Assembly: GCA_963708135.1 (NCBI GenBank)
Contig: OY970192.1
Coordinates: forward strand, 768,001 to 832,000
DNA length: 64,000 bases
Source of the DNA: an uncultured Gemmatimonadales bacterium
GTDB lineage: Bacteria; Gemmatimonadota; Gemmatimonadetes; Longimicrobiales; RSA9
Reading direction: 5' to 3'
Shown: one piece after another, positions 41,108 through 59,293 of the stretch
How the letters are laid out: every line of letters begins with the position of its first letter
Numbering within the stretch: the first letter of the stretch is position 1
Program-made: the position numbers and the translations under genes
Notes under the pieces: model-generated
Database searches by the model: none
What the model was told of the DNA's origin: nothing
The model's input: the letters and a program-made list of their open reading frames with translations, nothing else

Positions 41108-41212
41108 ACGCCGAAGAAGAAGGTGCTGGTCGGCATCGCCCGCAAGGCGACGCGCATGATGTTCCGGGTCGCGGTCGAGCGGCGGCTGTACACGGCCGAG
41201 CCGCCGCGGTAG

Positions 41213-41710
41213 GATGACGTAGCAGACAGGCTGGGGCGGGGCGCCGCTGCGCGCTCCCGCTTCCGGCCCGTGCACCGGGTCCAGGCCGGGGCAGAGCGCG
41301 CGAAGATGGATCGAAGGGACCCGCGTGGTCCGCTTCCGAGTGTGGCATTCGCGTACCCCGGCCCTGAGCACGCTCAAGTCTCCCATGTGGGGGTGTTGAG
41401 GGCCCTGCGGGGCGCCTCCGAATACCGACGCGATCGAGCTACGCGTGCTCATGTGGCCGGGGTGCGATTTGACAACAGGAGTCATCCTTTCAGGCGAGAG
41501 GAGCACCGCGTGCTCGCCGGGATGGTGGCCGGGCGTGGATCCGAGGCAGCACGTGAGGGGAGCGATGTCTCCGCCTCCGTCGAGTCGGCTGATCGCGCCC
41601 GGTCCACTCCCGTTGCTGTGACGCGCGGCTGAGGGGCCGGTGCGGATCCGATAATCTGGTCGAGGCGCACCCCGTGCGGCCTCCAAGGTGGCACTCGATC
41701 GCACCGGCCC
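41213..41710 (+). ncRNA. putative bridge/seek RNA of IS110-A (donor-like loop plus 2 target-like loops)
   Basis: Conserved blocks AGTCTCC, ATCGAGCTACGCG, GTGCGATTTGACAAC; stem-loops at 41526-41606 and 41635-41710. Confidence 0.7.
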
Positions 41711-41717
41711 ATCTGGG

Positions 41718-41957
41718 TCACTCTGCCAGCAGTTGGACTTCGAGTATCTCGCCGACCCCCGCCGCGGCGGCCGCTGTTCGATCGACGGAGTCGGGGTCCA
41801 CTGAGCCCCAGTTCAGAACTTCAAGGACATCGTACACAACCTCGCGCCCCGGGGAGTGTGGGTCTACAGACAGAATCTTGGCGACGACCACCTGACCATC
41901 GGCAAACCGCATCCGGACCCTCTGGTTTGCCAGCGGGATGAGTTCGGTAGCCTTCAT
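41718..41957 (-). CDS. putative immunity protein
   Basis: Small ORF directly after the Rhs tip; AGGAG RBS; alternative start at 42008. Confidence 0.65.
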   Translation of the reverse strand: MKATELIPLANQRVRMRFADGQVVVAKILSVDPHSPGREVVYDVLEVLNWGSVDPDSVDRTAAAAAGVGEILEVQLLAE

Positions 41958-41992
41958 CCTTTGCTCCTGTAGAAGTCGCGAGTACCCGGAGA

Positions 41993-42505
41993 TCACTTCC
42001 ACATCCATCGTTGGATGAGGAGGTGGACATTCCCACCAGTCAGTCTATTCTCCAAATTTCCGACCAATTCGCCCGCGTTGAAATGGCCCGCCGGCTTGAT
42101 CTGCGGCGCACGATAGACTCGATCTCCCGCGACTCGACCGATCTCGGCGCCCGCTCCACGAGCGGCTCGAATTGCGCGCCCTCCAGCGGTCCATATGCGG
42201 CCTGCGATGGTAGCCTCTAATTCACTACCGAGCCGAACGGTGACGTTTTTGACCGCGCCTGCCGCCGTTTCCAGAGCGCGTCCAACGCGTCCAGCTGCTC
42301 TCGCGACAGGAGGCATAGGGAGCATCGCCGTCATGCAGGAAATCGACTCAGCACACGTTGCGAGCACGCCACCTGCGTAGTTCAGCGCAGCGTTGCCTTC
42401 TCCCGTGGCGAGACGGTGCGCGTACCACTCTGACGTGCCCGCTTCACAGTTGTTGAAGTCATCATCGGCAGGCGGACACGAACCGAAGGGATCCGTGTAA
42501 GACGC
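41993..42505 (-). pseudogene. orphan Rhs C-terminal toxin tip (possibly an RNase)
   Basis: Open frame beginning ASYTDPFGSCPP, no start codon of its own; ends RVYRAPQIK..NLE..NVHL. Confidence 0.8.
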
Positions 42506-42815
42506 ACCCCTCTACCGCGATTGCCCCGCCTTCCGGCCGACCCAGCAATTCAGCGATCTTATTCGTCTCAAACAGCGTCCCGTACCGTGACCCTGCAGGT
42601 GCAACCCTGAACCGTATCGCTGGGCTGCCGATCGGCTGAAGCCGGGTGGTCGATTCATCGACGTGCTCGGGATTCGCCTCCAGCCTGGCCGGCGTTACGG
42701 TCAACGGTTCGGCTCCGAGCTCCCCACGGCAGGCCTCGGCCGCCGTCTGACCGCGTTTTCTGTCATCGTCCGGTTCACGGTACGTCCCCGGCTCACCTCA
42801 ACCGGGAGACGCACC

Positions 42816-44048
42816 ATGAGCCACTACAAGAAGCGCCAGAGGGCCCAGCGAGCCGCCGCCGTGGTCGGGATCGACGCCGCAAAGCGCAGGCACGCGATGG
42901 TCGTGCGGCCGCGCGGCGGCGAGGACTCGACGCCGATGTTCTTCGAGGCGACGCGCGCCGGCTTCGGCAAGGCCCTGGAGGAGATCGAGGCCTGCGCCCC
43001 TGACGCCGAGCGGCACGAGATCCTGGTCGGCATCGAGTTCGCCGGGAACTACGGCTTCACGCTGGCGCACCACTTCGCGGCCGAGGGCCTCCAGGTCGTG
43101 AGCGTGCTCGGCTCGCACTCGAAGAAGTGGAAGGAGGTCGTCCACAACCAGAGCCTGAAGAGCGACCCGGCCGACGCCGTCACGATCACCGACCTGGCCA
43201 GCCAGGGGCACTTCGTGATCTTCCCCTTCCTCGAGCAGGTATTTGCAGACCTGCGCTACCTCGTGAGCCTGCGCGAGCGCCTGACGAAGCTCCGCACGGG
43301 CGCCATCACGCGCCTCAAGGACGTGCTCCAGGTCGTGTGGCCGGAGTTCGACCGCCGCTTCGGCAACTTCAACCACAAGACGCCGATCGCGCCCCTGGAC
43401 GCCTTCCCGGGGCCCGACGCGCTCCTGAAGGCGTCCAAGCGCCGCATCATGACCGTGCTCCGGAAGGCGAGCCGCGGCCACCTCGGCGAGAAGGCCTATC
43501 AGGAGCTCCGGCACATGGCGGAGCACACCGTCGCCCTTCCGGGGGCCCAGGGCGTGCTCAAGGACGAGATCGCCCTCCAGCTCGAGCTCCTCGCCACCTA
43601 CGAGCGGCAGATGGCCGAGGTCGAGCGGCTCATGGCGGAGTCTGTGTCGAGCGTGCCTGAGGGCGAGGCACTCCTTACGATCCCGAAGCTCGGGGCCGTC
43701 ACCGCGGCGACGTTCCTCGGCTCGATCGGCGATCCGCAGGTCTACGAGTCCAGCCGTCAGGCACTCCGCGTCGGCGGACTGTCGCTCGTCGTCCACGAGA
43801 GCGGCAACCGGCACGGGCGTCCGCGGCTCTCCAAGCGGGGCCGCCCCGAGCTCCGGCGCCAGATGTACATGTTCGCGCTCCGGAGCGTCTCCAACCGGTC
43901 CCTCTACCACGACTACTACCGCCGCATGCTGGAGCGGAACGGTGGCGAGAAGATCCCCGCGCTGGTCGCCGTGATGCGCAAGGCGGCGCGCCTCATGTTC
44001 AGCGTCGCGAAGGACCGGCGCGCCTTCACCATGGAACCACCGCGGTAG
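42816..44048 (+). CDS. IS110-family DEDD recombinase
   Basis: GIDAAK, GIE, KSDPADA (DEDD) and C-terminal HESG..LSKRG..LR. Confidence 0.93.
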   Translation: MSHYKKRQRAQRAAAVVGIDAAKRRHAMVVRPRGGEDSTPMFFEATRAGFGKALEEIEACAPDAERHEILVGIEFAGNYGFTLAHHFAAEGLQVVSVLGSHSKKWKEVVHNQSLKSDPADAVTITDLASQGHFVIFPFLEQVFADLRYLVSLRERLTKLRTGAITRLKDVLQVVWPEFDRRFGNFNHKTPIAPLDAFPGPDALLKASKRRIMTVLRKASRGHLGEKAYQELRHMAEHTVALPGAQGVLKDEIALQLELLATYERQMAEVERLMAESVSSVPEGEALLTIPKLGAVTAATFLGSIGDPQVYESSRQALRVGGLSLVVHESGNRHGRPRLSKRGRPELRRQMYMFALRSVSNRSLYHDYYRRMLERNGGEKIPALVAVMRKAARLMFSVAKDRRAFTMEPPR

Positions 44049-44602
44049 CTCGGGGGAATAAACGGTGTGAGAGGGTCGGCTGGCGCGGACGCGCGCCGGC
44101 CCTCTCCGACCCAAGTGCACCCGACGCACGCCGGGGAGTTGCGCCCGAGAATGGATCGAGGAGGCCGCCCTTCGAGCGGCGGCCGGCCTCCGAATGCGGC
44201 ACACGCGCACCCCGGCCGGGAAGGCGCCCCAGTCTCCGAGATAGGGGTGTCGAGGGCTCCCAGGAACGCTGGCAGAACCGCGTTCCCGAGCGCCTCCTAC
44301 TTTGACCGCGATCGAGCTACGCGTCTTCATGCGGCCGGGGTGCGATCTGACAACACGGTTGCGGTTTCGCCCGGCGGGAGCGGCTCGCCGGGCGCGGACA
44401 CTCGCCTGGACGCGGATCCCGAGCGGCACTCGAGGGGAGCACAGCCTCTGCCTCCGAACAGGCCCCAGATCGCGTCCCGGCACCCTCTCCCCCGCCCCTG
44501 TGCGAGCAGACGGGGAAGAGGTGCACGAGGGGCCGGTGCGGATCCGATAATCCGGTCGAGGCGTCATCCGACGGCCTCCGAAGAGGCACTCGATCGCACC
44601 GG
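44049..44602 (+). ncRNA. putative bridge/seek RNA of IS110-B (donor-like loop plus 2 target-like loops)
   Basis: Donor-like loop 44243-44309; stem-loops 44405-44480 and 44533-44602. Confidence 0.75.
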
Positions 44603-44604
44603 GC

Positions 44605-44892
44605 CTACTCCGAAATCCCAAAGCGTGCTCTCGCATCCTCGGGAGCCACATTGATGAGCAACGGCGGTCCTCCACCGGGTAATTCGCTGTGGGGATAAGT
44701 CAGTACCCAAAAGCGTCCGTCCTTGGCGCGATACATGACGCTCCACCCATCATCTGAGCGCGCCACTTCCGTGATTTCGTGCGTAGTGATGATACGCTCA
44801 ATTCGACGGCATTCGTCGTCAGGGACAAGGCGGCCGTCCTGATCAACCCAAGTTCCGGTGATGACCGTTTCGTCTGGCTGAATGAGAGTCAT
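44605..44892 (-). CDS. immunity protein, Imm27-like
   Basis: GWSVMY..DGRFWVLTYPHSELPGGGPP; overlaps the toxin stop (ATGA). Confidence 0.8.
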   Translation of the reverse strand: MTLIQPDETVITGTWVDQDGRLVPDDECRRIERIITTHEITEVARSDDGWSVMYRAKDGRFWVLTYPHSELPGGGPPLLINVAPEDARARFGISE

Positions 44893-45404
44893 GGGATCTT
44901 CCTTATCAGGGCCTCAAACGGAATCGTGCCGTTGGGGATTACGAATTCACGAGCACCACCTGAAGTAAGTCCACGCCCGACGAAGCCCGGTGTCTTTCGG
45001 CCGACGGGAGAAGCAATCGCCTCGATGGCCGAACTCGGGAATTCAATGATGTTGAAGCCGAAGGGGCTTTCTGGGATCCCCAACCGAGTGGCAATCTCCT
45101 TCGACCCCATCCCCGCTATATCCTCGGCGGCCGTGACAAACACATCTTCGGCGCCAGCTCGCCCCAACGTTGCTGGAACAATATTCCCGGGAACGACGCG
45201 AGCAAGGACACTTGGGACAGCATTGGCTACTTCCCGACCGAGCAAGCGCCTTCCGAAGTCCGCAATGCCGCCTGCAATTCCGCCCGCGAGAACAGCGATG
45301 GGATCGAAAAATCCGGCGCTTTCAAGGCCTGGTTCGCCGCCGGGACACCCCGTATGCCACTCAGTCTCTGGGGGACACAATCCGAAGGGATCTGTATATA
45401 CCGG
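44889..45404 (-). pseudogene. orphan Rhs toxin tip, Ntox10-like
   Basis: Begins PVYTDPFGLCPP; contains DVFVTAAEDI and PGFVGRGLTSGGAREFVIPN. Confidence 0.8.
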
Positions 45405-45574
45405 ACGCCTCTAACCCAATGCGCCCCGTTTCGGCCTCAGACACCTCCCGCCGGACTCTACCTCCAGCCGTCTCAATCAGCCGTCCTGACACCCCCCCGA
45501 ACACCGAAGCCCTTCAGCATACCACCTAAAGTTCCATCGCCTCAGGCGCCCTCAGCCGCCGTCGATCCGCCCGG

Positions 45575-47011
45575 GGAGGTATTTTCAGAAGTTGTGGATC
45601 GCGTGACTTGATGGGGTGAAAAAAGGCGGCGTATCCTTCCGCGTTGGTTCGTTCACCGAAACGCGAAGCCCCGCTGGCCGGCGGGGGGAAGGAGACGCCA
45701 CCCATGCTGAAGCTATTCATGGACGCCCCTGCGGAGCAAGCGGGGGGGCTGGAGTTCACGCTGGACGAGCTCGCGCGTGAGGGCGCGCGGCGGATGCTGG
45801 CGGTGGCGCTGGAGGCGGAGGTGGCCGCCTACGTGGAGCGCTACCGGGGCGAGCGGGACGAGGCGGGACACGCGCTCGTGGTGCGCAACGGGAAGGCGCG
45901 GCCGCGACGCGTGACGCTCGGGGCCGGGACGGTGGAGGTCGCCGCGCCGCGGGTGAATGACCGACGGGTGGTGGAGGGGACGCGCCAGCGCTTCACGAGC
46001 GAGATCCTGCCGCCGTACATGCGGCGCAGTCCCAAGGTGGCGGAGGTGCTGCCGGTGCTCTATTTGCGCGGGCTCTCGACCGGGGACTTTCAGGAGGCGC
46101 TGCGGGCGCTGCTCGGAGCGGAGGCCACAGCGGGGCTGTCGCCGAGCGTCATCAGCCGCCTGACTGGAGCTTGGGAGGAGGAGTACCGGGCCTGGCGGCG
46201 GCGCGATCTCTCGGACCGAGACTACGTCTACGTCTGGGTGGACGGGGTGCATTTCCGGATCCGGCTGGAAGAGGACCGCCTGTGTGCGCTCGTCGTGATC
46301 GGAGTGCGCCCGGACGGGACCAAGGAGCTCGTGGCCATCGAGGACGGCTACCGCGAATCGACGGAGAGCTGGGCGGCGCTCCTGCGCGATCTGACGAGGC
46401 GCGGCATGCGCCCTCCCGTCCTGGCCGTAGGGGATGGCGCGCTCGGCTTCTGGGCGGCCGCGCGCGACGTCTGGCCCGACACGCGGGAGCAGCGCTGCTG
46501 GGTGCACCGGCTGGCCAACGTGCTGGACAAGCTGCCCAAGCGGCTCCAGCCGAAAGCGAAAGCGCATCTGCGCGAGATCATGAACGCGGAGAGCCGCGCG
46601 GCGGCCCAGGAGGAGATTGAGCGCTTCCGCGAAGAGTACGGCGCCAAGTACCCCAAGGCGGTGGCGTCCCTCGTGCGCGACCAGGACCAGCTCCTGGCCT
46701 TCTTCGACTTCCCGGCCGAACACTGGAAGCATCTGCGCACCACCAATCCGGTGGAGAGCACCTTCGCGACCGTGCGGCTCCGGCAGCGGGTGACGAAGGG
46801 AGCGGGCTCGAGAACGCGCGGGCTGGTGTTCGCCTACAAGCTCCTGGACATGGCCAGCCAGCGGTGGCGGCGCCTCGACGGCGCCCACCTCCTCCCCCTC
46901 GTTCGGGCGGAGGTCCAGTTCACCGACGGCATCATGCAAGAGAGGGAGGATCAAGAAGGGCGGAGGAGCGCCGCCTGATCACCCCAATCCACAACATTTG
47001 ACAATAGCTCT
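45575..47011 (+). mobile_element. IS256-family element
   Basis: Imperfect terminal IRs (GAGGTATTTTCAGAAGTTGTGGAT / GAGCTATTGTCAAATGTTGTGGAT); 8-9 bp target duplication (T)CCGCCCGG. Confidence 0.92.
45704..46978 (+). CDS. IS256-family transposase
   Basis: LYLRGLSTGDF, YVWVDG, GDGALGFW, QRCWVH, RTTNPVES. Confidence 0.93.
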   Translation: MLKLFMDAPAEQAGGLEFTLDELAREGARRMLAVALEAEVAAYVERYRGERDEAGHALVVRNGKARPRRVTLGAGTVEVAAPRVNDRRVVEGTRQRFTSEILPPYMRRSPKVAEVLPVLYLRGLSTGDFQEALRALLGAEATAGLSPSVISRLTGAWEEEYRAWRRRDLSDRDYVYVWVDGVHFRIRLEEDRLCALVVIGVRPDGTKELVAIEDGYRESTESWAALLRDLTRRGMRPPVLAVGDGALGFWAAARDVWPDTREQRCWVHRLANVLDKLPKRLQPKAKAHLREIMNAESRAAAQEEIERFREEYGAKYPKAVASLVRDQDQLLAFFDFPAEHWKHLRTTNPVESTFATVRLRQRVTKGAGSRTRGLVFAYKLLDMASQRWRRLDGAHLLPLVRAEVQFTDGIMQEREDQEGRRSAA

Positions 47012-47162
47012 CCGCCCGGATTCCGTCACCACTCCGGCGGTGATACGCTTCCGGGTTCGGGCTCAAACCCGGCAGGCGCCGCTCACAACGCCATTCAGCC
47101 CGATTCCGCCATCGGTGCGGCCCACGGTACCGCTCTGGTCCACTTCAACCAGGAGCGAGACC

Positions 47163-48398
47163 ATGAGCCGTTTCGAGAAGCGCCGCCGGGCCCAGCGCGC
47201 CGCCGCCGTCGCCGGAGTGGACGCGGGCAAGAGGAAGCACGCGATCGCCGTCCGGCCGCGCGGCGGCGAGGACAGCACGCCGCTCGAGTTCCAGACGACG
47301 CGGGAGGGCTTCGAGATCGCCGTCCACGCGATCCTCGACAACGCGCCCGACGCGCGGCCGGAGGACGTGCTGGTCGGCATCGAGTTCGCCGGCAACTACG
47401 GCTTCACCTTCGCGCACTTCCTGCGCGACCGCGGCTTCCAGGTCGTGAACGTGCTCGGCGCGCACAGCAAGCGCTGGAAGGAGGTCGTCCACAACCAGGG
47501 GCTGAAGAGCGACGCGAAGGACGCGCTCACGATCACCGACATGGTGGCGCAGGGCGCCTTCGTCGGCTTCCCGTTCCTCGAGCAGGTCTACGCCGACCTG
47601 CGCTACCTGGTCAGCATGCGCGAGCGCCTGACGAAGCTCCGGAGCGCGACGATCGCGCGGCTGAAGGACGTGCTCCAGGTCGTCTGGCCGGAGTTCGAGC
47701 GGCGCTTCAGCAACTTTAGCAAGAAGACGCCGATCGCGATCCTGGAGGCGTTCCCCGGGCCGGATGCGTTCCTGCGCGCACCGAAGCGGCGCGTGCTGAA
47801 GGTGATCCGGGAGGCGAGCCGGGGTCATCTGGGCGCGGCCGCCTACGAGCACCTGCGGTGCGCGGCCGAGGACACCGTGGCGCTCCCCGGCGCGCAGGGC
47901 GTGCTTGCGCAGGAGGTCGGCCTCCAGCTCGATCTCTTGGCCTCCTACGAGCGCCAGATCGCCGAGGTCGACCGCCTCATGGCCGAGCGGCTCGTGGACG
48001 CGCCCGAGGCCGAGGCGCTCCTGTCCGTCCCGAAGCTCGGCGCCGTCACGGCCGCCGTGTTCCTGGGCTCGATCGGCGACCCGCGGGCCTACGACTCCAG
48101 CCGGCAGGCGCTCAAGGTCGGCGGCCTCGGGCTCGTCGTGAGCGAGAGCGGCGCCCAGCGCGGCCGGCCGCGGCTCCCCAAGCGCGGCCGGCCCGAGCTC
48201 CGGCGCCAGATGTACATGTTCGCGGTGCGGAGCGTGAGCCGGGGCGGCCTGTTCCGGGCGGAATACGAGCGGGCGCTCGAGCGCAATCCGAACACGCCGA
48301 AGAAGAAGGTGCTGGTCGCGCTCGCGCGGAAGGCGACGCGGCTCATGTTCGCGCTCGCGAAGGAGCGGCGGCTGTACACGATGGAACCGCCGCGGTAG
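47163..48398 (+). CDS. IS110-family DEDD recombinase
   Basis: GVDAGK, GIE, KSDAKDA, SESG; clear paralog of 42816-44048. Confidence 0.93.
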   Translation: MSRFEKRRRAQRAAAVAGVDAGKRKHAIAVRPRGGEDSTPLEFQTTREGFEIAVHAILDNAPDARPEDVLVGIEFAGNYGFTFAHFLRDRGFQVVNVLGAHSKRWKEVVHNQGLKSDAKDALTITDMVAQGAFVGFPFLEQVYADLRYLVSMRERLTKLRSATIARLKDVLQVVWPEFERRFSNFSKKTPIAILEAFPGPDAFLRAPKRRVLKVIREASRGHLGAAAYEHLRCAAEDTVALPGAQGVLAQEVGLQLDLLASYERQIAEVDRLMAERLVDAPEAEALLSVPKLGAVTAAVFLGSIGDPRAYDSSRQALKVGGLGLVVSESGAQRGRPRLPKRGRPELRRQMYMFAVRSVSRGGLFRAEYERALERNPNTPKKKVLVALARKATRLMFALAKERRLYTMEPPR

Positions 48399-49042
48399 GT
48401 TGGGGGAATCAACACCATGGGAGGGCCGGCTGGCGCGGTGCGCGCCGGCCCTCCTACAGTGCACCAGACGCAGGCCGGGGGATGGAGCAGAAGAATCCAT
48501 CGAAGGGGCCGTCTCGCACGAACGTGAGGCCTGCTTCCCAAGGTCGGACCCGCTCCCCCTGACCCAGAGTTCGCCACAGTCTCCGAGGAAGGCGTGTCGA
48601 GGGCCACGCGCGGCAGACGCCGCCACGGTGCCTCCGAGGACTTGAGGGTATCGAGCTACGCGATCTCGAGTGGTCTGGGTGCGATTTGACAACTCAGCGC
48701 TTGCCTTCGCCGTCGCGGCGTCGAGCCGGCCGCGACGGAACGGGTGGCGTGTGCCCGGCGCGGATCCGACATCCAGCCTGAGGCGGCCCAGCCGGCCTCC
48801 CATGATGGACCTGATCGCGTCGGGCACCGTCCTCCTCATGGGCATCGGCCCGGCATGGACCCGATAATCCGGATGAAGGGCGCTCTGCGGCCTCCCATGT
48901 GGGACTCGGTCGTGCCGGGCCCCGCCTCCCCGCCGGGCTGGCCGACGGGGAGGTGAGCCGAACCGGGGCCTGTGTGGATCGGGGGATCCGACAGAGGCGC
49001 GAACATCGCGGCCTCGGAAAGTGACACTTGATCGCATCGGCC
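48399..49042 (+). ncRNA. putative bridge/seek RNA of IS110-C (donor-like loop plus 3 target-like loops)
   Basis: Donor-like loop 48590-48648; stem-loops 48751-48827, 48847-48921 and 48967-49042. Confidence 0.75.
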
Positions 49043-49055
49043 TCTTCGCTGGTCG

Positions 49056-49457
49056 TCATCGGTACTCCTCCTCCAAGCGTTGCAGTAGGGCAGTAAACTC
49101 AGCTACAGCCTCCGGAATCCCCTCGCCCAAGTCCTCGTGGAAGTAGTCGCGGAAGAGTAGATCTGGCCAGATCCGCGTCTGCCCAGGCGCGGTGGTGTCG
49201 ACGCGCCAATATCGGGAAGCCCGGCCATCTACTATCTCGAACAGTGAGATCGGTGCCCAGGAGAGCTTCCCATGCTCATTGACGAGGTGCAGCCATGTCC
49301 CGGTGCCCAAGACGTTGGAGTCAACCGAGAATTGGACTCCAACTACCATGTAGGTCTTCCCCAATTCCAATGCGAACTCATGGGCATCAGCAGCTACTCG
49401 GCCCATCCGCATCCGCTGCTCGGCGGTCGGCGAAATGGAGACACACTTGGCTCGCAT
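49056..49457 (-). CDS. putative immunity protein
   Basis: Start overlaps the toxin stop (TAATG); lower GC. Confidence 0.72.
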   Translation of the reverse strand: MRAKCVSISPTAEQRMRMGRVAADAHEFALELGKTYMVVGVQFSVDSNVLGTGTWLHLVNEHGKLSWAPISLFEIVDGRASRYWRVDTTAPGQTRIWPDLLFRDYFHEDLGEGIPEAVAEFTALLQRLEEEYR

Positions 49458-50011
49458 TATCTGAATACCGTTTTGAATTCCACCCGCACACCGGTTACGA
49501 GGTTTTCGACCCAGTGTGTCTCGAACCGGACTCCGTCGTCTGCCCTAAATATGCTACTACTCTTCTTGACCCAGTCTCCTGCCTCGCCTCCGTACTGCTC
49601 AGCTATCCTGCCAGCATCCCGAAACACGGTTCCGGATCGACCACCGGCAAAGATGGTCCCTCGCTCCGCCATCTGCGCTTTGCTGGCGATCTGTTTCGCC
49701 AGGTTGAGGGCTTCGCCACTTCTGCCGACGCCGCCGATGAAGGCCCCGGGCGAGCCGCACAAAACACCTTCACCACAACCGCCCCCCATAAGGTCGTTGA
49801 AGGTCTGTTCTCCGGCTTCAAGAGCTGCGCCCACGTTCAGCGCCCAAGAACGGCCGGTTCGAGACCCCCAGTTGGCCAGTAATTGGTAACAGGATTCATC
49901 GGAACCGGTGAAGGGACACAGCCCGAACGGATCGGTATAGGAGGCCGGATTATCCCCGTTGTAGCTGTAGAGGTTGAGCCCGCCCGCAAGTCCAATGGGG
50001 TCTTCCTGCGT
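49457..50011 (-). pseudogene. orphan Rhs toxin tip with short core remnant
   Basis: TQEDPIGLAGGLNLYSYNGDNPASYTDPFGL followed by a variable tip (YGG..DWVKK..ETHW..EFK). Confidence 0.82.
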
Positions 50012-50139
50012 TAATATCCGCTCAGACGCCTCCGGCCGACTCCCGAGCCGCTATCCCTCTGTCGTTTCTTTCTTTAGCCGCTTCCTTCCCGCCTTCTTCG
50101 TCGTAGTTTTCCGCTTCAGACCTGGATGCGTGTTTTCCC

Positions 50140-50361
50140 CTACGCAAAGAGGAGGCGTCCCTTCGGCGGTGGTACCTCACGACCGATGTCGCGCGCCGTC
50201 TCGATCCACTCCTCGATCACCGTCTGCACGTTGCCCAGCGCCTCGCGATACGTGGCACCGTCGGCGGCACAGCCCGGCAGCTCGGGCACCTCGGCGATGT
50301 AGGCATCGTCCTCCTCGCTCCAGTAGAGGATGATCTCGTAGCGTGGGTCAGTCTTCGCCAT
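50140..50361 (-). CDS. hicB: HicB-family antitoxin
   Basis: YWSEEDDAYIAEVPELPGCAADG.T..EAL. Confidence 0.88.
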   Translation of the reverse strand: MAKTDPRYEIILYWSEEDDAYIAEVPELPGCAADGATYREALGNVQTVIEEWIETARDIGREVPPPKGRLLFA

Positions 50362-50614
50362 CGGCCGTGCCTCCAAGCTTGTACGTCACGATTACACGCC
50401 GGACCTGCTTCACCTGATACGGCTTCGCCAGCTTGCCCCTGGGCTGCAGGTTCAGGATCTCCGCGATGCCATCACGCAAGTAAATGTGATGGCTGCCGCG
50501 GATCCGCTCCTCGAAGCCGAGCGCATGGAGCAGACGCCGCAGATCCTGGAAATCGATGGCGCTGTCGGAGGTTCCCCGCAGCAGCCGCGCCAGGATCTTG
50601 TCGATCTGCGTCAT
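50348..50614 (-). CDS. hicA: HicA-family toxin
   Basis: LGF..RIRGSHHIY and AKPYQVKQV. Confidence 0.88.
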   Translation of the reverse strand: MTQIDKILARLLRGTSDSAIDFQDLRRLLHALGFEERIRGSHHIYLRDGIAEILNLQPRGKLAKPYQVKQVRRVIVTYKLGGTADGED

Positions 50615-50668
50615 GCCGAAAGATAGCGTGCCGGCTCCTCGCGCGGGACCACCAAGGTGCGGGGCAGG

Positions 50669-50756
50669 TTTACGTAACCCGGTTACGTAAAGGGCCAGAG
50701 GCCCCCAGCGCAGGCGCGGCGAGGCCGAGTGCGCATAATCCCGGGATTATGCGCAC
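50669..50756. repeat. two palindromes, Xer/dif-like
   Basis: TTTACGTAACC-C-GGTTACGTAAA (50669-50691) and GTGCGCATAATCCC-GGGATTATGCGCAC (50729-50756). Confidence 0.8.
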
Positions 50757-50884
50757 CGAGCGAAAGCGAGGGGACCCGGCCGGTCCCGAGCGAGAGCGAG
50801 GGCGGCGCGCCGGAGCGCAGCCTGCGCCGCACGCGCCACGCTGCCGGCCCTGCCACCACCACCCTAAATAGACAAGCAAAGCAG

Positions 50885-51847
50885 CTAAAGAGAGGAGGGG
50901 TGGGTGGGCCGTGTGAGATGGGCCGGGTGAGTGCGGGCGTGCACCTGCTTGAGGCGGGCGATGGAGACGCGGGTGTAGAGCTGGGTGGTGGAGAGCTGGG
51001 CATGACCGAGCATCTCCTGGATGTCGCGGATGTCGGCGCCGCCCTCGAGCATGAGGGTGGCCATGGTGTGGCGAAAGAGGTGGCAGGAGCCGCTCTTGCC
51101 GAGGTCAGCCGCGGCCACGTAGCGGCGCACCAGCTCAGAGAGACGATTGGCCCGGAGCCGCCGTCCGCGGCGGGAGAGAAAGAGGAGTCCGTGATCGGGC
51201 GGCACGAGCAGGTGCGGCCGCACATCCGAGAGGTAGCGCTGGGCCCAGGCGAGCGCCCGCTCCCCGACGGGCACCAGCCGGTCGCGTCGTCCCTTGCCCT
51301 CGCGCACGAAGAGACTGCCGCGGGCAGGATCAATGTCCACCAGGCGGAGCCGGATGAGTTCGGTGCGACGGATCCCGGTCGAGTAGAGCACCTCGAGGAG
51401 CGTGCGGTCCCGCACCCCGAGCAGGGTGAACAGATCCGGCTGCGCAAGCACCCGCTCCGCTTCGTCGCTGGTGAGCACGGCGCCGGGCAGGTGATGGGCT
51501 CGCCTGGGCAGCTCGAGGTCGGCCGCGGGGTTGTAGGGCAGGCGGTGGGTCCGCACGAGCCACTTCAACAGGCCCTTGATGGCGATGAGCTTCTGCGCCT
51601 GTGCGCCCCAGCCCAGCGGCTGTCCGTTCTTCTGCCGCTGCTGGAAGAGCGCCGTGCGATAGCGCTCGAGGAGCGGCAGCGAGAGATCCTGCACGGTCTC
51701 GACGCCGCGCTCCTCGCACCAGGTGCGGAAGTGGTTCAGGTAGCTTTTGCGGCTGCGCACCGTGTGCGGCGAGTAGGCCGCGGCCGCAAGCGCGGCCAGG
51801 TGCAGCGCGATGAGCGTGGCGAGTTCGCTCTCCGCGGCCGCACTCAT
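50885..51847 (-). CDS. XerC/XerD-type tyrosine recombinase
   Basis: YSTGIRRTE, GKG, HLFRH, LGHAQLSTTQLYT (R-K-H-R-H-Y intact). Confidence 0.93.
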   Translation of the reverse strand: MSAAAESELATLIALHLAALAAAAYSPHTVRSRKSYLNHFRTWCEERGVETVQDLSLPLLERYRTALFQQRQKNGQPLGWGAQAQKLIAIKGLLKWLVRTHRLPYNPAADLELPRRAHHLPGAVLTSDEAERVLAQPDLFTLLGVRDRTLLEVLYSTGIRRTELIRLRLVDIDPARGSLFVREGKGRRDRLVPVGERALAWAQRYLSDVRPHLLVPPDHGLLFLSRRGRRLRANRLSELVRRYVAAADLGKSGSCHLFRHTMATLMLEGGADIRDIQEMLGHAQLSTTQLYTRVSIARLKQVHARTHPAHLTRPTHPSSL

Positions 51848-54800
51848 GCGTCCGCCGGGCCGTGATGGCCATTGCCCGAGGGAGCGGTTGCGACTACGTA
51901 CGATTCCAGCCGCTCGTCGCCCTGAGATGGCTTTTCCAGTCTTTCTTTAGCAGCTAAAGAAGGGATCCGACTGACAGGAGCGGAGTTAGTACCGCTCGAA
52001 GCACCCCGGCCCCGGCCCGACCTCCCGCCGGCCGGGGGCCGACCGGACCCCGACCGCTCCACTCGGAGCCCCGACCGCTTCGCGTCATAGCCACCCTCGT
52101 GCAACGCCTCCACCTCGATCAGCCCCGGCAGAAACGCCTCACCTCCCATCCCCTGGCCCCGGTAGAGCAGCTCATAGGTGTAGCGCGGCCCCACCCGGTG
52201 CATGAGCACGTACTCGAGATCCACCAGTCGGCCCAGATGGATCTTTGTCTGCGTCGCACCCGTCGCGAGCGCCTCGCGCACCGACCGGGCTGTGAAGCGG
52301 AAGGTCTCCGGCTCGACCGTCTCACGACTGCACTCCTCGATGGCCCACTCGTTGAGCGCCTCCAGGAAACGGCGCGTCTGCGGCGGCAGCTCATCCAGCG
52401 ATCTCCCCAGCACCGCGGCCGCCAGCCGGTTCGCGACCTCGATATCCTCTCGAGTGACTTCGATGTAGTCGATCCGCTCACCACCCCGCTCCGCCTGCTT
52501 CACCTCGCGCTGGTACTGGTGCAGCAACGCGATCGCATCCATCAGCGTCAGGTACTTCTCGTGATCGCGCCGCGTGCGGGTGCACGTGTCCAGAAACGTG
52601 AGCTGCGGCGCGTACGGGTTCACCACCGCCAGCGGTCGGAGCAGTCGCTGCGCGTTCTGATGCAGTCGCACCAGGGCATTCCCCTCCCGCCGTGCCAGCA
52701 GGCCCTCCAGTGTGCGCCGCGCCCGTTGCCGCTCGTGCACGCGCCGCGTCTGCGCGCGCGCCTCATCCACACTCAGCACCAGCGCCCGATTGAGCAGTTC
52801 CTCGTCCAGGTCCGTGGCCGTCGTGGTCAGCATGATCGCCACCGGCCCCTCCACCCGGTACTCCTCCGTCACCAGCCGGCCCGTGTGCGGATCCTTGCCC
52901 GTACTCGCGATGCTCAGCGTCCCCTCGCTCTGCAGCAGCTTGAGCGCGTAGCTCGCCCGCTCCGCACCTTCTTCTTCCACCACCGCCAGCACCTTGTGGC
53001 GCAGGTCCCGCCCGCCCATGTAGAAGAGGCTCTGCCCCGTCATGGCGGAGTACTCAATGCGCTCCTCTTCAGGCACGAAGCCCAGCACCGCATCGAGCAG
53101 GCTCGTCTTGCCCGCCGCACTGCTGCTCTGCACGATCACCGCGAGCGGCCGCTCCAGCTTCCGGCTCACGCTCGCCAGATAGCCCACCAGCTTGTTCGTC
53201 TCCTCGCCTACCACCCCCACCGCCTCGAAAGCACCGAGTACCTGCTCCAGCAGGTCGGGGGCGCGCAGCAGATCGAGCGCCGCGGCCTCCTCCCCCTCCG
53301 AGAGCTCGGGCGGCTTCTGTTCCCGGGGCGTGAGCGCATCGCGGAGTCGCTCCTCCTGCAGCGTCTCCAGCGCCAGCAGCACCTGGCCCAGCTCCGTCTT
53401 GAGCGCCGGCTCCGGGGCGCCGAGCTCGCTGGCGGCTTGCTTGAGGTAGGCCGTGCGCTGCTTGGCCGCGTACAGGTCCAGCGTGTCCACGTGCAGCGCC
53501 GCGCCCTGACGTACCAGCAGGTTGATCCGCAGCGCGTCCGCACTCGTGTTCTTCTCCAGCCCCCGCACCCGGTAACTCCGCTCGCCCGCGCGCAGCACGA
53601 CCTCATGCTCACCCACCTCCACCGGCAGCGGCGGGGTGGGCGCGGCGGGAAGCGGAGAGGCAGACGGCACAGAGGGAGAGGAGGCGGCTAAAGGAGAGGA
53701 GGTCGAGGCCTTCGCAGTGGAGTGCGACGTGCCGGACACCCCCACTGATAGCTCATCCGCACCTGGCTCGTCCGGAGGACGTGCGGACTTCGCCGCGGGC
53801 GTTGCACGGCCACCGCCCAACCACACCGCGTGCCGGATCCGCTCCCCCAGGCTCTCCGCTGCCGGTGTCGAGGCCAGGGCATAGGCGTTGGCGTCCATCC
53901 CCTGCGGAAACTGGATGCGATAACACCCGATTCCGTCCGCCGCGAGTTGCTCGGCCAGTGCGGCCGCCGCGCTCTCGCCCGCCGCGTCCCGGTCGTAGGC
54001 GATCAGCACGCGCTCGGTGCCGTATCTGCGAAACGCCTCGTGATGCGCCGCCGTGAAGCCGCTCACCCCGTAGCTCGCCGTCACGTTCCGGTAGCCCGCG
54101 CACCAGAAGCTCAGCGCATCGAGCAGCGCCTCGCACAGGATGACCTCCTTCGACTCCGCCAGCGCCGCTTCGTTCCACACCCCCGCGTGCGCCCCCGGCA
54201 GGTAGAGGTGCAGCGGCGTGCCTGCCCGCAGTCCCTCCGTGATCTTGCGACCGTACATCTCCCGCACCGCTTCATCGGCATCGATCACCGGCACCACCAG
54301 CGAGCCGGTGAAATGCTCGTGTCCGCTCGGTCGCAGGATCCCCAGCCGCTGCAGCCGACTCCGGATCTCCGCTCCCGCCTTGAGCGCCTTCTTCGGCAGG
54401 TGGTAGCCCAGCGTCCGGTTGGCGAAGCCCAGTTGGAAGCGGTCAATATCCGCCACCTGGGCGAGGCCCCGCTTCTCCAGGTAGGCGATGGCTTCCGGAC
54501 TCTCCTTCAGCGTCTCGTGGTAGTAGCCCACCACCTGCTGCAGCAGCGCCTGGTCATCGACGTCCGGCTCCAGCAGCGGCGGCAGTGCTCTGGCCTTTGC
54601 ACTCGCGGCGGGCGCACCCCGCAGGATCTCCACCGCGTGCCGGAAGCTCACCCCCTCGCGCCGCATCACCCAGTCGATCACGCTCCCGCCCGCCTGGCAC
54701 GCGCCCAGGCAGTGCCACAGCCCTTTCGCCGGGCTCACCACCAGACTCGGCTCGTGGTCCTCGTGGAACGGACACAGCCCCAGCAGGTCCGCGCCGTGCC

Positions 54801-54891
54801 GCCGCAGCTTCACTCCGCTCCCCTCCACCAGCCCCACCAGGTCCGCCTCGCGCTTGAGCCGCTCCAACTCCTCCCTCTGGATCCGGGCCAT
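51844..54891 (-). CDS. DnaG-like primase (CHC2 Zn finger + Toprim) fused to a P-loop domain
   Basis: CPFHEDHEPS..WHC..C, CEALLD, YDRD, SSAAGKT. Confidence 0.88.
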   Translation of the reverse strand: MARIQREELERLKREADLVGLVEGSGVKLRRHGADLLGLCPFHEDHEPSLVVSPAKGLWHCLGACQAGGSVIDWVMRREGVSFRHAVEILRGAPAASAKARALPPLLEPDVDDQALLQQVVGYYHETLKESPEAIAYLEKRGLAQVADIDRFQLGFANRTLGYHLPKKALKAGAEIRSRLQRLGILRPSGHEHFTGSLVVPVIDADEAVREMYGRKITEGLRAGTPLHLYLPGAHAGVWNEAALAESKEVILCEALLDALSFWCAGYRNVTASYGVSGFTAAHHEAFRRYGTERVLIAYDRDAAGESAAAALAEQLAADGIGCYRIQFPQGMDANAYALASTPAAESLGERIRHAVWLGGGRATPAAKSARPPDEPGADELSVGVSGTSHSTAKASTSSPLAASSPSVPSASPLPAAPTPPLPVEVGEHEVVLRAGERSYRVRGLEKNTSADALRINLLVRQGAALHVDTLDLYAAKQRTAYLKQAASELGAPEPALKTELGQVLLALETLQEERLRDALTPREQKPPELSEGEEAAALDLLRAPDLLEQVLGAFEAVGVVGEETNKLVGYLASVSRKLERPLAVIVQSSSAAGKTSLLDAVLGFVPEEERIEYSAMTGQSLFYMGGRDLRHKVLAVVEEEGAERASYALKLLQSEGTLSIASTGKDPHTGRLVTEEYRVEGPVAIMLTTTATDLDEELLNRALVLSVDEARAQTRRVHERQRARRTLEGLLARREGNALVRLHQNAQRLLRPLAVVNPYAPQLTFLDTCTRTRRDHEKYLTLMDAIALLHQYQREVKQAERGGERIDYIEVTREDIEVANRLAAAVLGRSLDELPPQTRRFLEALNEWAIEECSRETVEPETFRFTARSVREALATGATQTKIHLGRLVDLEYVLMHRVGPRYTYELLYRGQGMGGEAFLPGLIEVEALHEGGYDAKRSGLRVERSGSGRPPAGGRSGRGRGASSGTNSAPVSRIPSLAAKERLEKPSQGDERLESYVVATAPSGNGHHGPADA

Positions 54892-54928
54892 GGCTCCTGC
54901 CTCCTCCGGAAATCCCGTCAATGGACCC

Positions 54929-54978
54929 TTGCGTCTCTTGTGGTATGGACTAATATGTCATCATCGCACCGGACGCAA
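54929..54978. promoter_or_regulatory. divergent promoter/operator between primase and XRE genes
   Basis: Inverted repeat TTGCGTC...GACGCAA around an AT-richer core. Confidence 0.45.
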
Positions 54979-54994
54979 GAGAGGAGGCCTTATC

Positions 54995-55381
54995 ATGATC
55001 GACCACGTGAAGCTCTATCCCGAGGTCGATATGGAGCAGTTCCCGGAGACCCTCAAGCTGCTGAGGGAAAGCAGGGGTCTGACGCAGGCCCGGCTTGCCG
55101 AGTTGATCGAGGCCAGTCCGCGCGTCTACAATCGGTGGGAAACGGGCGCGGCGGCCCCGCGGCTAGACACTCTCGTGAAGATCGCTGACATCCTCAACGT
55201 CAGCCTGGACGAGCTCGTCGGGCGCACCGAGCCCAGTTCCGAGGTCGAGATCCAGAATCCCAGGCTCCACGCCCTCTACCGCCACATCGATCGGCTCTCC
55301 GACGAGGACCAGCAGGCCGTCATCATCCTTCTCGACTCTCTCGTCAAGCGGTCCCAGATGGACCAGATCCTCGCTTCCTGA
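54995..55381 (+). CDS. XRE-family HTH regulator
   Basis: LRESRGLTQARLAE..YNRWETG..P..LNVSLDELVG; GAGGAGG RBS. Confidence 0.88.
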   Translation: MIDHVKLYPEVDMEQFPETLKLLRESRGLTQARLAELIEASPRVYNRWETGAAAPRLDTLVKIADILNVSLDELVGRTEPSSEVEIQNPRLHALYRHIDRLSDEDQQAVIILLDSLVKRSQMDQILAS

Positions 55382-55624
55382 CCAGCCACCGCCGCCCACG
55401 GGAACGAGCAGCTAAAGGAAGAAGCCCGGCCATCGCTGGTCGGGCTCTCCGGCTTCATGCCTGTGTCTCGGCACCGTTGCGGGCTCCGCTCCGGCGTGCC
55501 GGCCTCGCATTATGCGCCCTCGCCCTCGGCGCGCCTCCGCTCCGGGCGCTTCGCGCCTCTACATAACCGGGTTATGCAAACCCGCTGCGGCAGATCTCGT
55601 TGACAAAACGCCATATTCATTTGC

Positions 55625-56074
55625 TCATTCAGAGTTCAGCGGAGACTGACTGGCAACTTGCGTCGATTCCGAGAATTCCCATGCCTTAAAAGTAATCTCG
55701 ATCCACGAGTAGCCCTCGCGGCGAAATGACGCTTTGTAGCTGGGCCCGGTCAGCCGTGAACGAACCAAGGCTCCAGCATCTTCGACTCGAAGGCAAGCGA
55801 TTTCGCCGAAGCCCCAACCAAGTGATGCCTCCTTCTGCATCACTGAGTCAGAGAGTTCGTTGATAACGTGCAGTTCACTCACGCCGCAGAAGCGGATTGA
55901 CACAATACGCCGGTCAGCGTATTGGGTCCGAATCGTTCCATCCTCCTGCCACACGAAGTCAATGTCGATGCTGAGGGACGCGCCCCAGTTCAGCCACTGG
56001 ACGCCGACAACAACACACTCCTCGAAATCGCGGTACGCGTGAAGCTCTGCTCTCAATACAGGCAATCCGCTCAT
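55625..56074 (-). CDS. putative immunity protein
   Basis: ATGA overlap with the Rhs stop; lower GC. Confidence 0.72.
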   Translation of the reverse strand: MSGLPVLRAELHAYRDFEECVVVGVQWLNWGASLSIDIDFVWQEDGTIRTQYADRRIVSIRFCGVSELHVINELSDSVMQKEASLGWGFGEIACLRVEDAGALVRSRLTGPSYKASFRREGYSWIEITFKAWEFSESTQVASQSPLNSE

Positions 56075-59040
56075 CGATTCCAGATGTTAAGATGCGTGGT
56101 CGCGTTGGGACCAGGGTTACCCAGCGCGTCGAGATAGTTGCGAGCTGCATTCATGATGCGCAGTTGCCAACCATTTTCCCGCCGCATTAAGCGAACTTCT
56201 TCGCCCGTTCCATTCGTGAAAAGGTAGCCACTCTTATTCTCCGTCAGTCCCATCACAAACCCGTTCTCTTTCAGAATTGCGCGAATTCCAATGATCGACT
56301 CATCCGCAAGTCCGCCTCCCTCCGAGAACAGCGCGCGTAGCCCGGCGCTCGCTCCCCGTAGCCCCCGCCCGACGGCACCACCACCCACCGTGAATGCCGC
56401 CATTGCGAAGCCGCGTCCGGCGTGACCACTCCCGATATCGAAGCCAGCATCAAACGCTGCGGTGATCGGATTGACATCGTTGATCGCATTCAACCCAGCT
56501 GCGGCATTGAGCACCACGCCGCCCAGGCCACCGCCACGCTGCGCTCCCCAATTTGCCGCTTTCTGCAAGCAATCTTCAATCGGCGGGCACAATCCGAACG
56601 GGTCGGTATAAGACGCGGGGTTGTTGCCCGCATACGCATAGAGGTTAAGCCCGCCGGCAAATCCGATGGGGTCTTCCTGCGTGAACCTCCCCAATCTGGC
56701 GTCGTAGTAGCGGTTGCGGAAGAAGGCTCCGGTCTCCTGGTTCGAGTCGCCGTTGCGGGCGGGGGCGAAGCTGTAGCTTTCGCGGATGGCACCCGACTGC
56801 GAGCCCCAGGTACTCCACGCCGGGAGCTCGTTTCCGTTCGTGTCCGTGATGCAGTTCTCGCCCTGCGGGCCCTGGAAGCTGAACAGTCGTTCGCGATGCG
56901 TGATGAAATATGCGCGCTTGTCGTTCAGGCTGCCGAGGGGACACGCAGCGTTGCCGTACATCATCAGCGGGTCGTCGAGCCCCGGCCCGTCCACGAACTC
57001 GACCGTCGAGTGCTCGATCACGTTCTGACCATCGTAGAAGGTCTCCGCGCCGGAGTGGGCATAAGCGCCGCGGATCCGCCGGCCCAGGCCGTCGTAGCGG
57101 AAGAAGGCGGTATCGGGGTGAGTGCCGGAGAGCTGGCCGGCGGCGCTGTAGTAGCGGTGCCAGGTGTAGGCGGTCCCGGCGTAGGTGCCCTGCTCGAGCG
57201 TCTCGTTGCCGTTCGCGTCGTAGCTGAAGTCGACGCTCTCCGGACCGGAGACGCCGCTGTAGTAGCGGGTCCGGCGGGTCACCTCGTTCGAGAGGCCGTC
57301 GAGCTGGAAGAGCACGCTGTCGGCGCACAGGCTGCCGCGCACGCACAGGTACTCCTTCACGCGGTTGCCGGCCGCGTCGTGGACCAGGCTGTCCATGGAG
57401 GCGTAGGTGCCGTTCTTCATCTGGTCCGTGTAGCGGATCTTCCCCCGGTGGTCGTAGGCCCAGTGGCTGACCCACGTCCCTCCGTTCGTCTCCCGGCCCC
57501 GGTTCACGACCGAGTCCGGCCGGCCCGCGGCGTCGTAGGCGAAGGTAAGGTCCACGGGCGTGTAGCCCGTCGTCGCATTGACCGAGACGACGCGCGCGAG
57601 CTGCCCGTCCTTCGTGTAGCCGTAGCTCGTCTTCGTGCCGTTGGGCAGCGAGACCGTGTCGCGCCGGCCGAGCGCGTCGTAATGGAAGGAGATCACCTCG
57701 CCCGCCGGCGTCTGGATCTGGCTGACGAGCCCGCCCGGGCCGAAGGTCGAGGTGTAGGTGCCCTTCGGCGTGGTCCGCGTGTGCCGGCCCGCCCACTGGT
57801 AGGCCGACGTGTACGTCCGCGTCGTTCCCGACCACTTGTGGAGCTGGACGCTCGAGGCGAGGGTGCCCTCGCGGTTGAAGGTGCGCGTGACCTTCGAGCT
57901 GTCCTCGTCGAGCACGGTCGGGTTGCCGGCGGCGTCGTACTGGAGGTCGATCGTGGTGCCGCGCACGCCGAGGACACCGCCCTGGTAGGTGCTCGAGAGA
58001 ATCCGCTGCTTCGGGCGGTCGTCGCCGTCGTAGTGGATCGTGACGGTGCTGCCGTCGCGGTTCGTGCCCAGGGTGAGGTTCCCGGCGAGGTCGTAGGCGT
58101 CGAGCTGGGTGGCCCCCTTGGCGTCGACCATTGCCGTGTCCTCGCCCAGGGCGTTGTACTGCCAGATGCGGGCGAGCAGGCGGGGGTCTGACGCGCCAAT
58201 GCGGTTACCATCCGCATCGAACGTGAAGCGGCTGGGGCGTATGAGGCCGTGGTCGTACTGGTCGACCTCGGTCCGGTTGCCGAGAAGGTCGTGCACGAAG
58301 GTCGTGCTGTCACCGGCGGGGTCGCTCACGCGGCGCAACAGCCCGTAGGCGTCGTAGCCGTAGCTGGTGGTGTCGCCGCCGGGCGTGGTGCTCGAGAGCA
58401 GGTTGCCGGTGCCGGAATCGTCGTTGCCGAGCATCGTGGTGAGATCCTGCACGCCGGCGCCGTAGACCGGCACGGAGTGCTCGGTCGCGCTCGCCACCTG
58501 GCCGCGGCTGTTGTACGTGAAGCTGGTCTCGTGCCCGCGCGGGTCCACGACGTTGTCCAGCGTGCCGTCCGTGGCGTTGTAGGTGAAGGTGGTGGTGTCC
58601 CGGTGCGTCCCGTCGCGCGGCTCGATCAGCTTCCACGGCTTGTCAGGCGCCGCCGTCGAATACCGATAGGTCACCGAATCCGCGCCGGCGCTCGACGTGA
58701 GGTCCGCGGCGTAGGCGACCCGGCCGGAGCCGTCGTAGGCGGTCGTGGTGGTGCGGCCGTTCGGCCAGTCGACCTCCTTCGTGAGCAGGGGGAAGCTGGC
58801 GTCGTGCTTCAGGACGGTTGTATTGCCCACGGCGTCGACAACCGTGTCCGGCGCGCCGAAGCGGTCCAGGTAGAACTTCGTGATCTGCAGGGTGTCCGTG
58901 CGCGGCCCGTGCACCTCGAAGTCGGCGCTCGCGGCCGCGTAGCTGGCGTTGAGGCCGGTGGCGGCGGTGGCAAGGCCGCGGCTCGCGAGAGGAGTAAACG
59001 TCGTGACCGGCGTTCCGGCCGTGACCTGCGGCAGGGTGTC
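56071..59040 (-). pseudogene. rhs: 5'-truncated Rhs/YD-repeat protein with toxin tip
   Basis: Many YDxxGR repeats and the core motif RNRYYDARLGRFTQEDPIGFAGGLNLYAYAGNNPASYTDPFGL. The ORF-track extension to 59454 reads through ncRNA and immunity DNA. Confidence 0.88.
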
Positions 59041-59292
59041 GGCCTCCCACGATGGACCTGATCGCGTCGGGCACGCCCCTCCTTCGCACTCATGGCCATC
59101 GACCCGGCATGGACCCGATAATCCGGGCGAGGCGCGCTCTGCGGCCTCCCATGTGGGACTCGGTCGTGCCGGGGCCCCACCTCCCCGCCGGGATGACCGA
59201 CGGGGAGGTGAGCGGAACGGGGCCGGTGTGGATCCGATAATCCGGTCGAGGGGTCTATGACCGCCTCCAATCTCGGACTCGATCGCACCGGC
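59041..59292 (+). ncRNA. truncated target-loop array (half a loop plus two full loops)
   Basis: Stem-loops 59103-59173 and 59221-59292, both with ATAATCCG. Confidence 0.7.
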
Positions 59293-59293
59293 T

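Follow-up and report, generated by a model that had tools for sequence, protein, structure and literature searches.

Putative multi-loop bridge RNAs in IS110-family elements that appear to carry toxin-immunity cassettes at Rhs junctions

Downstream of the recombinase gene in the IS110-family elements of an uncultured Gemmatimonadales bacterium lies a series of stem-loop units, and we propose that these are the guide loops of a multi-loop bridge-type RNA, which would direct the element, with a toxin-immunity cassette as its cargo, to the junction between the core and the toxin tip of rhs genes. We put the probability of this explanation as a whole at roughly 0.55. The loop structure, the matches between loop arms and DNA sites and the layout of the arrays are all supported by sequence statistics. 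The original prediction, that each unit of the tandem array is a target loop for a variant of the Rhs motif, is supported in part: the units do appear to be IS110 guide loops, but not every unit is directed at Rhs. Of greater weight than the array itself are the cargo, a toxin cassette, and the targeting of Rhs in frame.

Organization of the elements and their loop units

The window, by which we mean the whole 64,000-nt stretch of DNA analysed, corresponds to positions 768001-832000 of a 5.4-Mb single-contig genome. Between 40 and 64 kb, rhs pieces occupy the minus strand, and the plus strand holds four IS110-family elements (A-D); together with elements E and F, beyond the window, six IS110-type elements lie at genome 809-840 kb. 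Pfam places both PF01548 (DEDD RuvC-like) and PF02371 (Tnp) in the recombinase genes of B (42663-44048) and C (46998-48398), and relatives of the recombinase were found in Gemmatimonadota MAGs. The features, numbered from the first base of the window, are as follows.

41108-42503, plus strand: element A, left-truncated, with recombinase tail, U0, A1, A2, and cargo immunity and toxin ORFs on the minus strand
41108-41216, plus strand: remnant of the A recombinase gene, last codons only
41378-41444, 41525-41606 and 41632-41712, plus strand: U0, A1 and A2 of element A, with outer stems
42506-45402, plus strand: element B, with left end (LE), recombinase gene at 42663-44048, U0, B1, B2 and cargo
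44232-44322, 44402-44483 and 44528-44607, plus strand: U0, B1 and B2 of element B, with outer stems
44608-44892 and 44892-45398, minus strand: Imm27 and Ntox10 (Pfam), the cargo of B
45405-45574, plus strand: LE of element C, starting AC GCC TCT AAC, from the left-junction string
45575-47033, plus strand: IS256-family (Transposase_mut) element inside C, with PF00872 at 45644-46978
46998-48398, plus strand: IS110-family recombinase gene of C (PF01548 and PF02371), likely start at ~47163 from alignment with copy B
48579-48661, plus strand: U0 of C, donor-type loop by its arm matches
48750-48828, plus strand: unit C1, the first loop, with the GG + AC core as in the element and arms that match no known half-site
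48845-48923, plus strand: unit C2, Rhs target-type, whose 5' arm agrees with the D-N-P codons at 10/10 and whose core, GG, is also that of the left junction of C
48924-48954, plus strand: linker hairpin common to B, D and F, from sequence and fold
48964-49045, plus strand: unit C3, a foreign-type loop and the second of the Rhs-type loops, with a G-D-P arm and core AC
49056-49457, minus strand: immunity-like cargo ORF of C, 133 aa, no Pfam match
49457-49943, minus strand: cargo toxin C-terminal region of C, an in-frame fusion to the Rhs motif, its first codons being the donor left arm
49944-49954, minus strand: right junction of C, made up of the core GC (49944-49945) and the right target half, which is the Rhs D-N-P codons
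59037-60127, plus strand: remnant of element D, with cut D1, D2 (59099-59177), D3 (59218-59296), cargo immunity and toxin, and right junction at 60122-60136
About 68200-69212 (window-relative), beyond the window: element E, degenerate
70126-72295 (window-relative), beyond the window: element F, 94% identical to C

The crossover core of C is GG (45403-45404), the left target half ending at 45402, and an LE-like start of the form AC.CCT.T is common to the related elements. The 5' part of C is interrupted by the IS256-family insertion, which is absent from a related contig of another run where 45574 is joined to 47034; counted from the conserved Met, the recombinase of C is ~410 aa. The right end of C, overlooked in the original prediction, appears to lie ~1 kb past the RNA, beyond the immunity and toxin genes. 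Element D is a 3' remnant whose RNA part spans 59037-59296. Both D (at 59037-59040) and E (at ~68199, beyond the window) adjoin internal Rhs core sequence, D being cut within the hairpin of its first unit, which suggests deletions or recombination between element and rhs core behind their truncation.

Several further features of the region may be recorded here. A segment of 8.1 kb is duplicated with 98% identity at window positions 49913-58017 and 60096-68199; it contains a tyrosine integrase (50885-51847) and a primase-like gene (51844-54921), together with a toxin-immunity pair, a stub of the Rhs core end and a partial Rhs core. The recombinase gene of A is cut at 41040-41108, beside a short direct repeat (…caaccg…caaccgg). 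Three junction motifs occur in a second rhs locus, at genome 2777105-2786773, and nearby, at 2795105-2795519, is a copy of the present IS with heavy deletions. In nearly all elements the conserved motif GCGATTTGACAAC, which includes a -35-like TTGACA, follows the donor loop and precedes the first unit (48679-48692, 41464-41477 and 44342-44355).

The stretch 48751-49042 holds three units of 55-58 nt, C1 (48762-48816), C2 (48857-48911) and C3 (48976-49033), which with their outer stems extend over 48750-49045, and in each unit an internal loop of 13/13 nt separates the outer stem from the inner hairpin. Without outer stems, the units of A lie at 41537-41594 and 41644-41700, those of B at 44414-44471 and 44540-44595, and those of D at 59111-59165 and 59230-59284, preceded by the cut first unit (59037-59063). 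The counts given in the original prediction (two units in A, two in B, three in C and, in D, a cut first unit plus two) agree with ours, and the pattern it described, stem-GGATC-loop-GAGG-hairpin-CCTC-loop-GATC-stem, holds, with the variant GGACC/GGTC in C2 and D2. The covariance analysis that it proposed gave the same picture. We gathered relatives as loci anchored on the recombinase protein and aligned 52 units from 26 elements, six from this genome and 20 from other genomes and metagenomes. In this alignment 93.4% of cells are paired in the proposed structure, as against 32-43% with slid partners, double-sided changes occur in 13 of the 19 base pairs, and no measure was reached in any of 500 shuffles (0/500); the units thus align, fold and covary, and the stem-loop observation is confirmed. 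The fold of the single sequence was uninformative (z = -1.87 against shuffles).

Searching the 5.4-Mb genome with the covariance model (17043 first-pass candidates, of which 150 were scored) returned 14 units at E<=0.01, every one of them within the 3' non-coding region of one of the six IS110-family elements. Among 72 other genomes of the family the units were present in nine, two in tandem in seven genomes, one in one, and three in one (G033). A DNA search with the RNA region over 401 genomes of the order returned few real matches. No Rfam family reached its gathering score in the window, and at E up to 10 the region 48300-49100 gave only chance-level matches.

Loop arms, insertion site and proposed mechanism

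The loops were compared with the DNA on either side of the elements. On the right, the 5' arms of the last units are identical to the Rhs core-end codons at 125 of 160 positions in 16 elements (permuted mean 106.0, p=0.0002), the 5' arm being the sense strand of the Rhs codons beside the right junction, for which the host versions are D-N-P, G-D-P and N-N-P. At the left junction, the four bases on the left side of the core agree with the 3' arm of the first Rhs-type loop at 55 of 80 positions in 20 elements, against 38.6 by permutation (0 of 50,000 permutations as high), and a reduced set of 16 elements gave 42/64 against 28.4 (p=2e-5); in these comparisons the register was set from the LE motif, L065 and L077 were adjusted by hand, the left-site strings were copied by hand, and many of the compared elements are kin (L055-57, L074/76, B/L070). 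In 19 of 20 elements the two bases that follow the left arm are those of the junction core, of which there are four types. The loop core is itself followed by AC, the first two bases of LE, in 12/12, but this is invariant and hence uninformative.

For individual loops, the matches to the right half, out of 10, are 10 for C2, 9 for D2 and 8 for F2, and 6, 9 and 10 for C3, D3 and F3; A and B have one Rhs-directed loop each (A2 and B2). The guide strings had been read correctly in the original prediction, as may be seen from the 16-mer derived from B2, which has seven genome sites at <=3 mismatches, three of them intact Rhs junctions (49939, 60121 and 73155) with 1-2 mismatches. Its claim that the units are Rhs guides stands for one loop per element, whose 5' arm holds the D-N-P codons and whose 3' arm holds the post-Pro codons, and does not stand for the first units, whose matches are at chance. 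Its caveat, that no loop of C fits the insertion site of C well, also holds, C2 matching at 1/4 and C3 at 0/4. The left arm and core of E2 (genome 837149-837203, window-relative 69149-69203), by comparison, are exactly the insertion site of C (TACC + GG, 4/4). The predicted targets of C2, D2, D3, F3 and C3 are absent from every Rhs site in this genome. A position at genome 4,017,360, which C2 and D2 fit at 2 mismatches, was rejected as a target, there being no Rhs junction at that place. The left flanks of L063, L072 and L073 are not Rhs-like, from which there may be other classes of target beyond Rhs; that of L072 presumably resembles an IS3-type transposase.

Each element has, upstream of these units, a donor-type loop, U0, that was not listed in the original prediction. 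Over its last 7 nt the 5' arm of U0 agrees with the reverse complement of the LE start at 64 of 77 positions (permuted mean 56.5, p=0.00025), the agreement over all 11 nt being weak (80/121 against 75.3, p=0.026). The 3' arm agrees with the codons at the start of the cargo toxin at 78 of 114 positions in 19 elements, against 48.4, a value as high occurring in 0 of 20,000 permutations; the bases matched are the four before the Tyr codon and the core at the far right junction. This fit of the 3' arm is the main evidence that the right end of the element lies past the toxin gene. Judged by its arms, both of which match ends of the element, U0 is the donor loop.

The flanks of the RNA have a recurring order. 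To the right of each RNA comes an immunity-like ORF, then a toxin C-terminal ORF of 160-180 aa, both on the minus strand, and then an intact Rhs motif (…DNPAS-YTDPFGL); to the left, LE adjoins a motif cut just before S/T-Y, beyond which is another toxin-immunity pair. This layout recurs in most related loci with enough flank, the exceptions being the left flanks of L063, L072 and L073. In element B the cargo pair is Ntox10 with Imm27. The right junction of F is in frame with 1571 open Rhs codons, and those of C and D are on core-end stubs of 37 codons. The surrounding locus has the marks of an Rhs polymorphic toxin locus, with RHS repeats (PF05593), variable tips with immunity genes, and the junction motif at five places.

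From these observations the following pathway can be proposed. A multi-loop bridge-type RNA would be encoded downstream of the recombinase, with the units as its guide loops. The 5' arm of U0 would pair with the start of LE and its 3' arm with the first toxin codons, 0.9-1.5 kb past the RNA, such that the mobile unit would consist of LE, recombinase, RNA, immunity gene and toxin tip. The first Rhs-type unit would act as the target loop, its 5' arm pairing with the core-end codons of Rhs (D/N/G-N/D-P) and the partners of its 3' arm being the four bases that precede the Tyr codon, the 2-nt core and, in a handshake-like manner, AC, the first two bases of LE. Insertion would take place antisense to rhs at the core/toxin junction, the cargo toxin becoming fused in frame to the Rhs core and the resident toxin-immunity pair being displaced behind the element, which would yield an array such as A-B-C. 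The extra loop in C, D, F and a second clade would have been acquired when loop-plus-cargo ends recombined as modules. Production of the RNA, joint movement of element and cargo and the mechanism itself are what we infer from the sequence comparisons; neither a circle junction nor an empty site was seen, and movement of element and cargo as one unit is thus a predicted step.

The first unit and the extra Rhs-type loops

In C, D and F there are two Rhs-type loops with similar Rhs arms and different left arms, TGTG in C2, D2 and F2 as against AGTG, TCTC and CATC in C3, D3 and F3, respectively. The same condition, two loops with one right arm and differing left arms, is found in a second clade (L073, L074/75/76/78, G033), which is separate from C on the recombinase tree; L052, the sister of C, has two units. 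The original prediction held that the loop array broadens the range of Rhs alleles, and the presence of two Rhs-type loops in C, D and F agrees with it, but the left site as it now stands agrees with the extra loop at only 3 of 20 positions (a match in 0/5 three-unit elements), which is at chance or below, with C3 and F3 both scoring 0. In L074 and L076 it is the middle loop that fits the real left site (4/4), the last loop fitting at 1/4. It is plausible, from the arms, that the extra loop serves as an alternative target loop, directed at Rhs alleles in which the Pro is followed by other codons. A broader reading of the array, in which one RNA has one donor loop and two or three target-type loops sharing one core, with choice among Rhs alleles, possibly a second class of target through the first unit, and loops perhaps acting in trans, is one that we regard as tentative and would not favor at even odds.

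It can alternatively be hypothesized that the extra loop (C3, D3, F3 and, in L073-L078 and G033, the third loop) is a folded passenger of swaps that involve loop plus cargo and is not used for targeting, which we consider possible but doubtful. The poor match of these loops to the current site would fit such a passenger, as would the core of C3, which is AC where the C junction has GG, and its likeness to the single loop of L053 and L077, which has the same core AC. The similarity between C and F ends exactly at 48980, where C3 and F3 begin, cargo and last loop differing from there on; since the two elements are otherwise 94% identical, the cargo seems to have been exchanged or captured, rather than faithfully co-transposed, which counts against the proposed joint movement of element and cargo. 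D3 and F3 are 83-86% like B2, and a contig from another run fuses a C-type RNA to a B2-like unit, so that such joins spread. Thus C3 looks to have been acquired by recombination, and the loop-plus-cargo end seems, from these alignments, to be exchanged between elements. The idle-passenger account has to contend, however, with the retention of the three-unit state across a diverged clade (branch lengths of L073 and L074, 0.18 and 0.30), in which the 5' arm of the third loop is identical in L073, L074 and G033, the 3' arms are 1-2 bases apart and the changes in the hairpin are compensating, and with the retention of the element core in 4 of 5 extra loops.

The first unit (A1, B1, C1, D1 and their counterparts) is present in all full elements and carries the element core in 16 of 16, and its arms fit none of the four half-sites. 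Its 5' arm is at chance against the Rhs right half (42/120, permuted mean 43.5, 12 elements) and also against LE (20/100 against 26.3), its 3' arm is at chance against the start of the cargo (34/102 against 33.2), and the match of the unit to the left site, 17/64, is likewise at chance. Exact 8-9-mers from its arms, searched for within ~1.5 kb beyond each of 13 elements, gave nothing consistent, nor did 10-mers with 1 mismatch. The first unit, the third, or both could serve a step other than targeting, such as binding of a junction for excision, titration of the recombinase or supply of target-loop RNAs in trans. A separate, truncated target-loop RNA is used in a pathway reported in a preprint (10.1101/2025.10.25.684509), and the 4/4 fit of E2 to the site of C is consistent with action in trans. 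Junction binding by the first unit, however, failed in the comparisons with cargo and LE, and the 3' arms of the third loops, compared by eye, do not match the starts of their own cargo in C, D, F, L073 and L074, on which ground binding of the integrated right junction by the third loop was rejected; we think a non-target role unlikely. Least probable by far is that the units are merely REP-like repeats or transcription terminators devoid of any guide role. They are GC-rich hairpins in non-coding DNA beside convergent genes, and the z of -1.87 is modest, but 14/14 genome matches are inside IS110-type elements with none elsewhere in 5.4 Mb, the loop arms covary with the flanking DNA, and the units have no subsequent T-run. 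The original prediction had itself named REP-like or terminator behavior as the finding that would speak against it, and the placement of the matches and the lack of T-runs contradict that behavior. We retain the multi-loop bridge RNA as the preferred reading.

Comparison with known systems and implications

In the bridge RNAs or seekRNAs that have been described, a single target loop is accompanied by a single donor loop (PMC11208160), and the IS110 bridge RNA is treated as a single two-stem unit (PMC12045711), in agreement with the statement in the original prediction that characterised bridge RNAs have one target loop. The elements studied here share with IS110/IS1111 elements such as IS621 and ISEc11 the DEDD + Tnp recombinase and an ncRNA in the long non-coding end, internal loops whose two arms base-pair to opposite strands of the target and of the donor, and a 2-nt core in common (PMC11208160, PMC11187229, PMC13626964). 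The dinucleotides fit the exchanged strand, as do the handshake guides of IS621 (PMC13626964), and the arm complementary to the top strand is placed 5', as in IS1111-type seekRNAs (PMC11208160, PMC11187229, PMC13626964). With its recombinase domains, structured RNA and matches of both target-loop and donor-loop arms, the present RNA is a good candidate for an IS110 bridge RNA. In IS1111 elements, as described, the gene has a long non-coding region downstream of it, the inverted repeats are subterminal and the transposase has 330-350 aa (PMC11187229); here too the RNA is downstream, but the ~410-aa protein fits the IS110-type size. The far end of LE bears what reads as an imperfect copy, in inverted orientation, of the Ser-Tyr codons, e.g. 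TCCTAT in L056.

There are also clear differences from the IS110/IS1111 elements as those sources describe them. Three to four guide loops are found here in place of two, that is, U0 plus two units in most elements and U0 plus three in C, D, F, L073-L078 and G033. Beyond this, the arms of the first unit match no half-site, some lineages have two loops for one right target half, the donor left arm is ~1 kb from the RNA owing to the toxin-immunity cassette inside the element, and insertion, which leaves the reading frame intact, is aimed at a motif within the coding sequence of rhs. Expanded IS110 elements have been reported with plasmid-derived and resistance cargo, in a paper whose main text uses the words toxin and Rhs 0 times (10.64898/2026.08.14.744561). 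Extra genes between recognised ends, and a flexible or half-matched use of the boundaries, are common to those elements (10.64898/2026.08.14.744561) and ours, whereas the cargo here is the tip of a polymorphic toxin, the first codons of which themselves form the donor arm. As far as main texts go, our literature search for IS110 together with Rhs, or for multiple or tandem target-binding loops, found nothing comparable.

The tandem stem-loops, with two spacers each for opposite DNA strands, resemble TIGR-Tas, and TIGR-Tas proteins are structurally related to IS110's RNA-binding domain (PMC12045711). TIGR arrays are regular, are processed to 36-nt RNAs and go with Nop-domain proteins and no recombination (PMC12045711). 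The present RNAs, unlike these arrays, have only three to four units (two or three after U0), irregularly spaced by their linkers, beside a full IS110 recombinase.

The displaced toxin-immunity arrays downstream of rhs, with the junction at the conserved motif before DPxGL, recall Rhs orphan cassettes. Such orphan toxin cassettes are associated with replacement of the C-terminal tip through homologous recombination. Background on Rhs cassettes and tip replacement is provided by PMC3482391. In the loci studied here, unlike orphan cassettes, an RNA-guided element would separate each displaced pair, and the left junctions have no upstream homology stub and break at a fixed 2-nt core.

Bridge recombinases are programmable tools for genome writing that have been described with one target and one donor loop. 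If the present reading is true, several target-type loops on one RNA would imply that the enzyme tolerates multiplexed or alternative targeting, and the layout of the cargo suggests RNA-guided, in-frame delivery of a gene fragment into a host gene. On the broader, tentative reading of the array, the elements would also be a living intermediate between two-loop bridge RNAs and guide arrays of the TIGR type, which bears on the proposed evolutionary link from IS110 RNAs to tandem guide arrays. For the rhs loci themselves, they would provide a site-specific route for the exchange of toxin tips, alongside homologous recombination.
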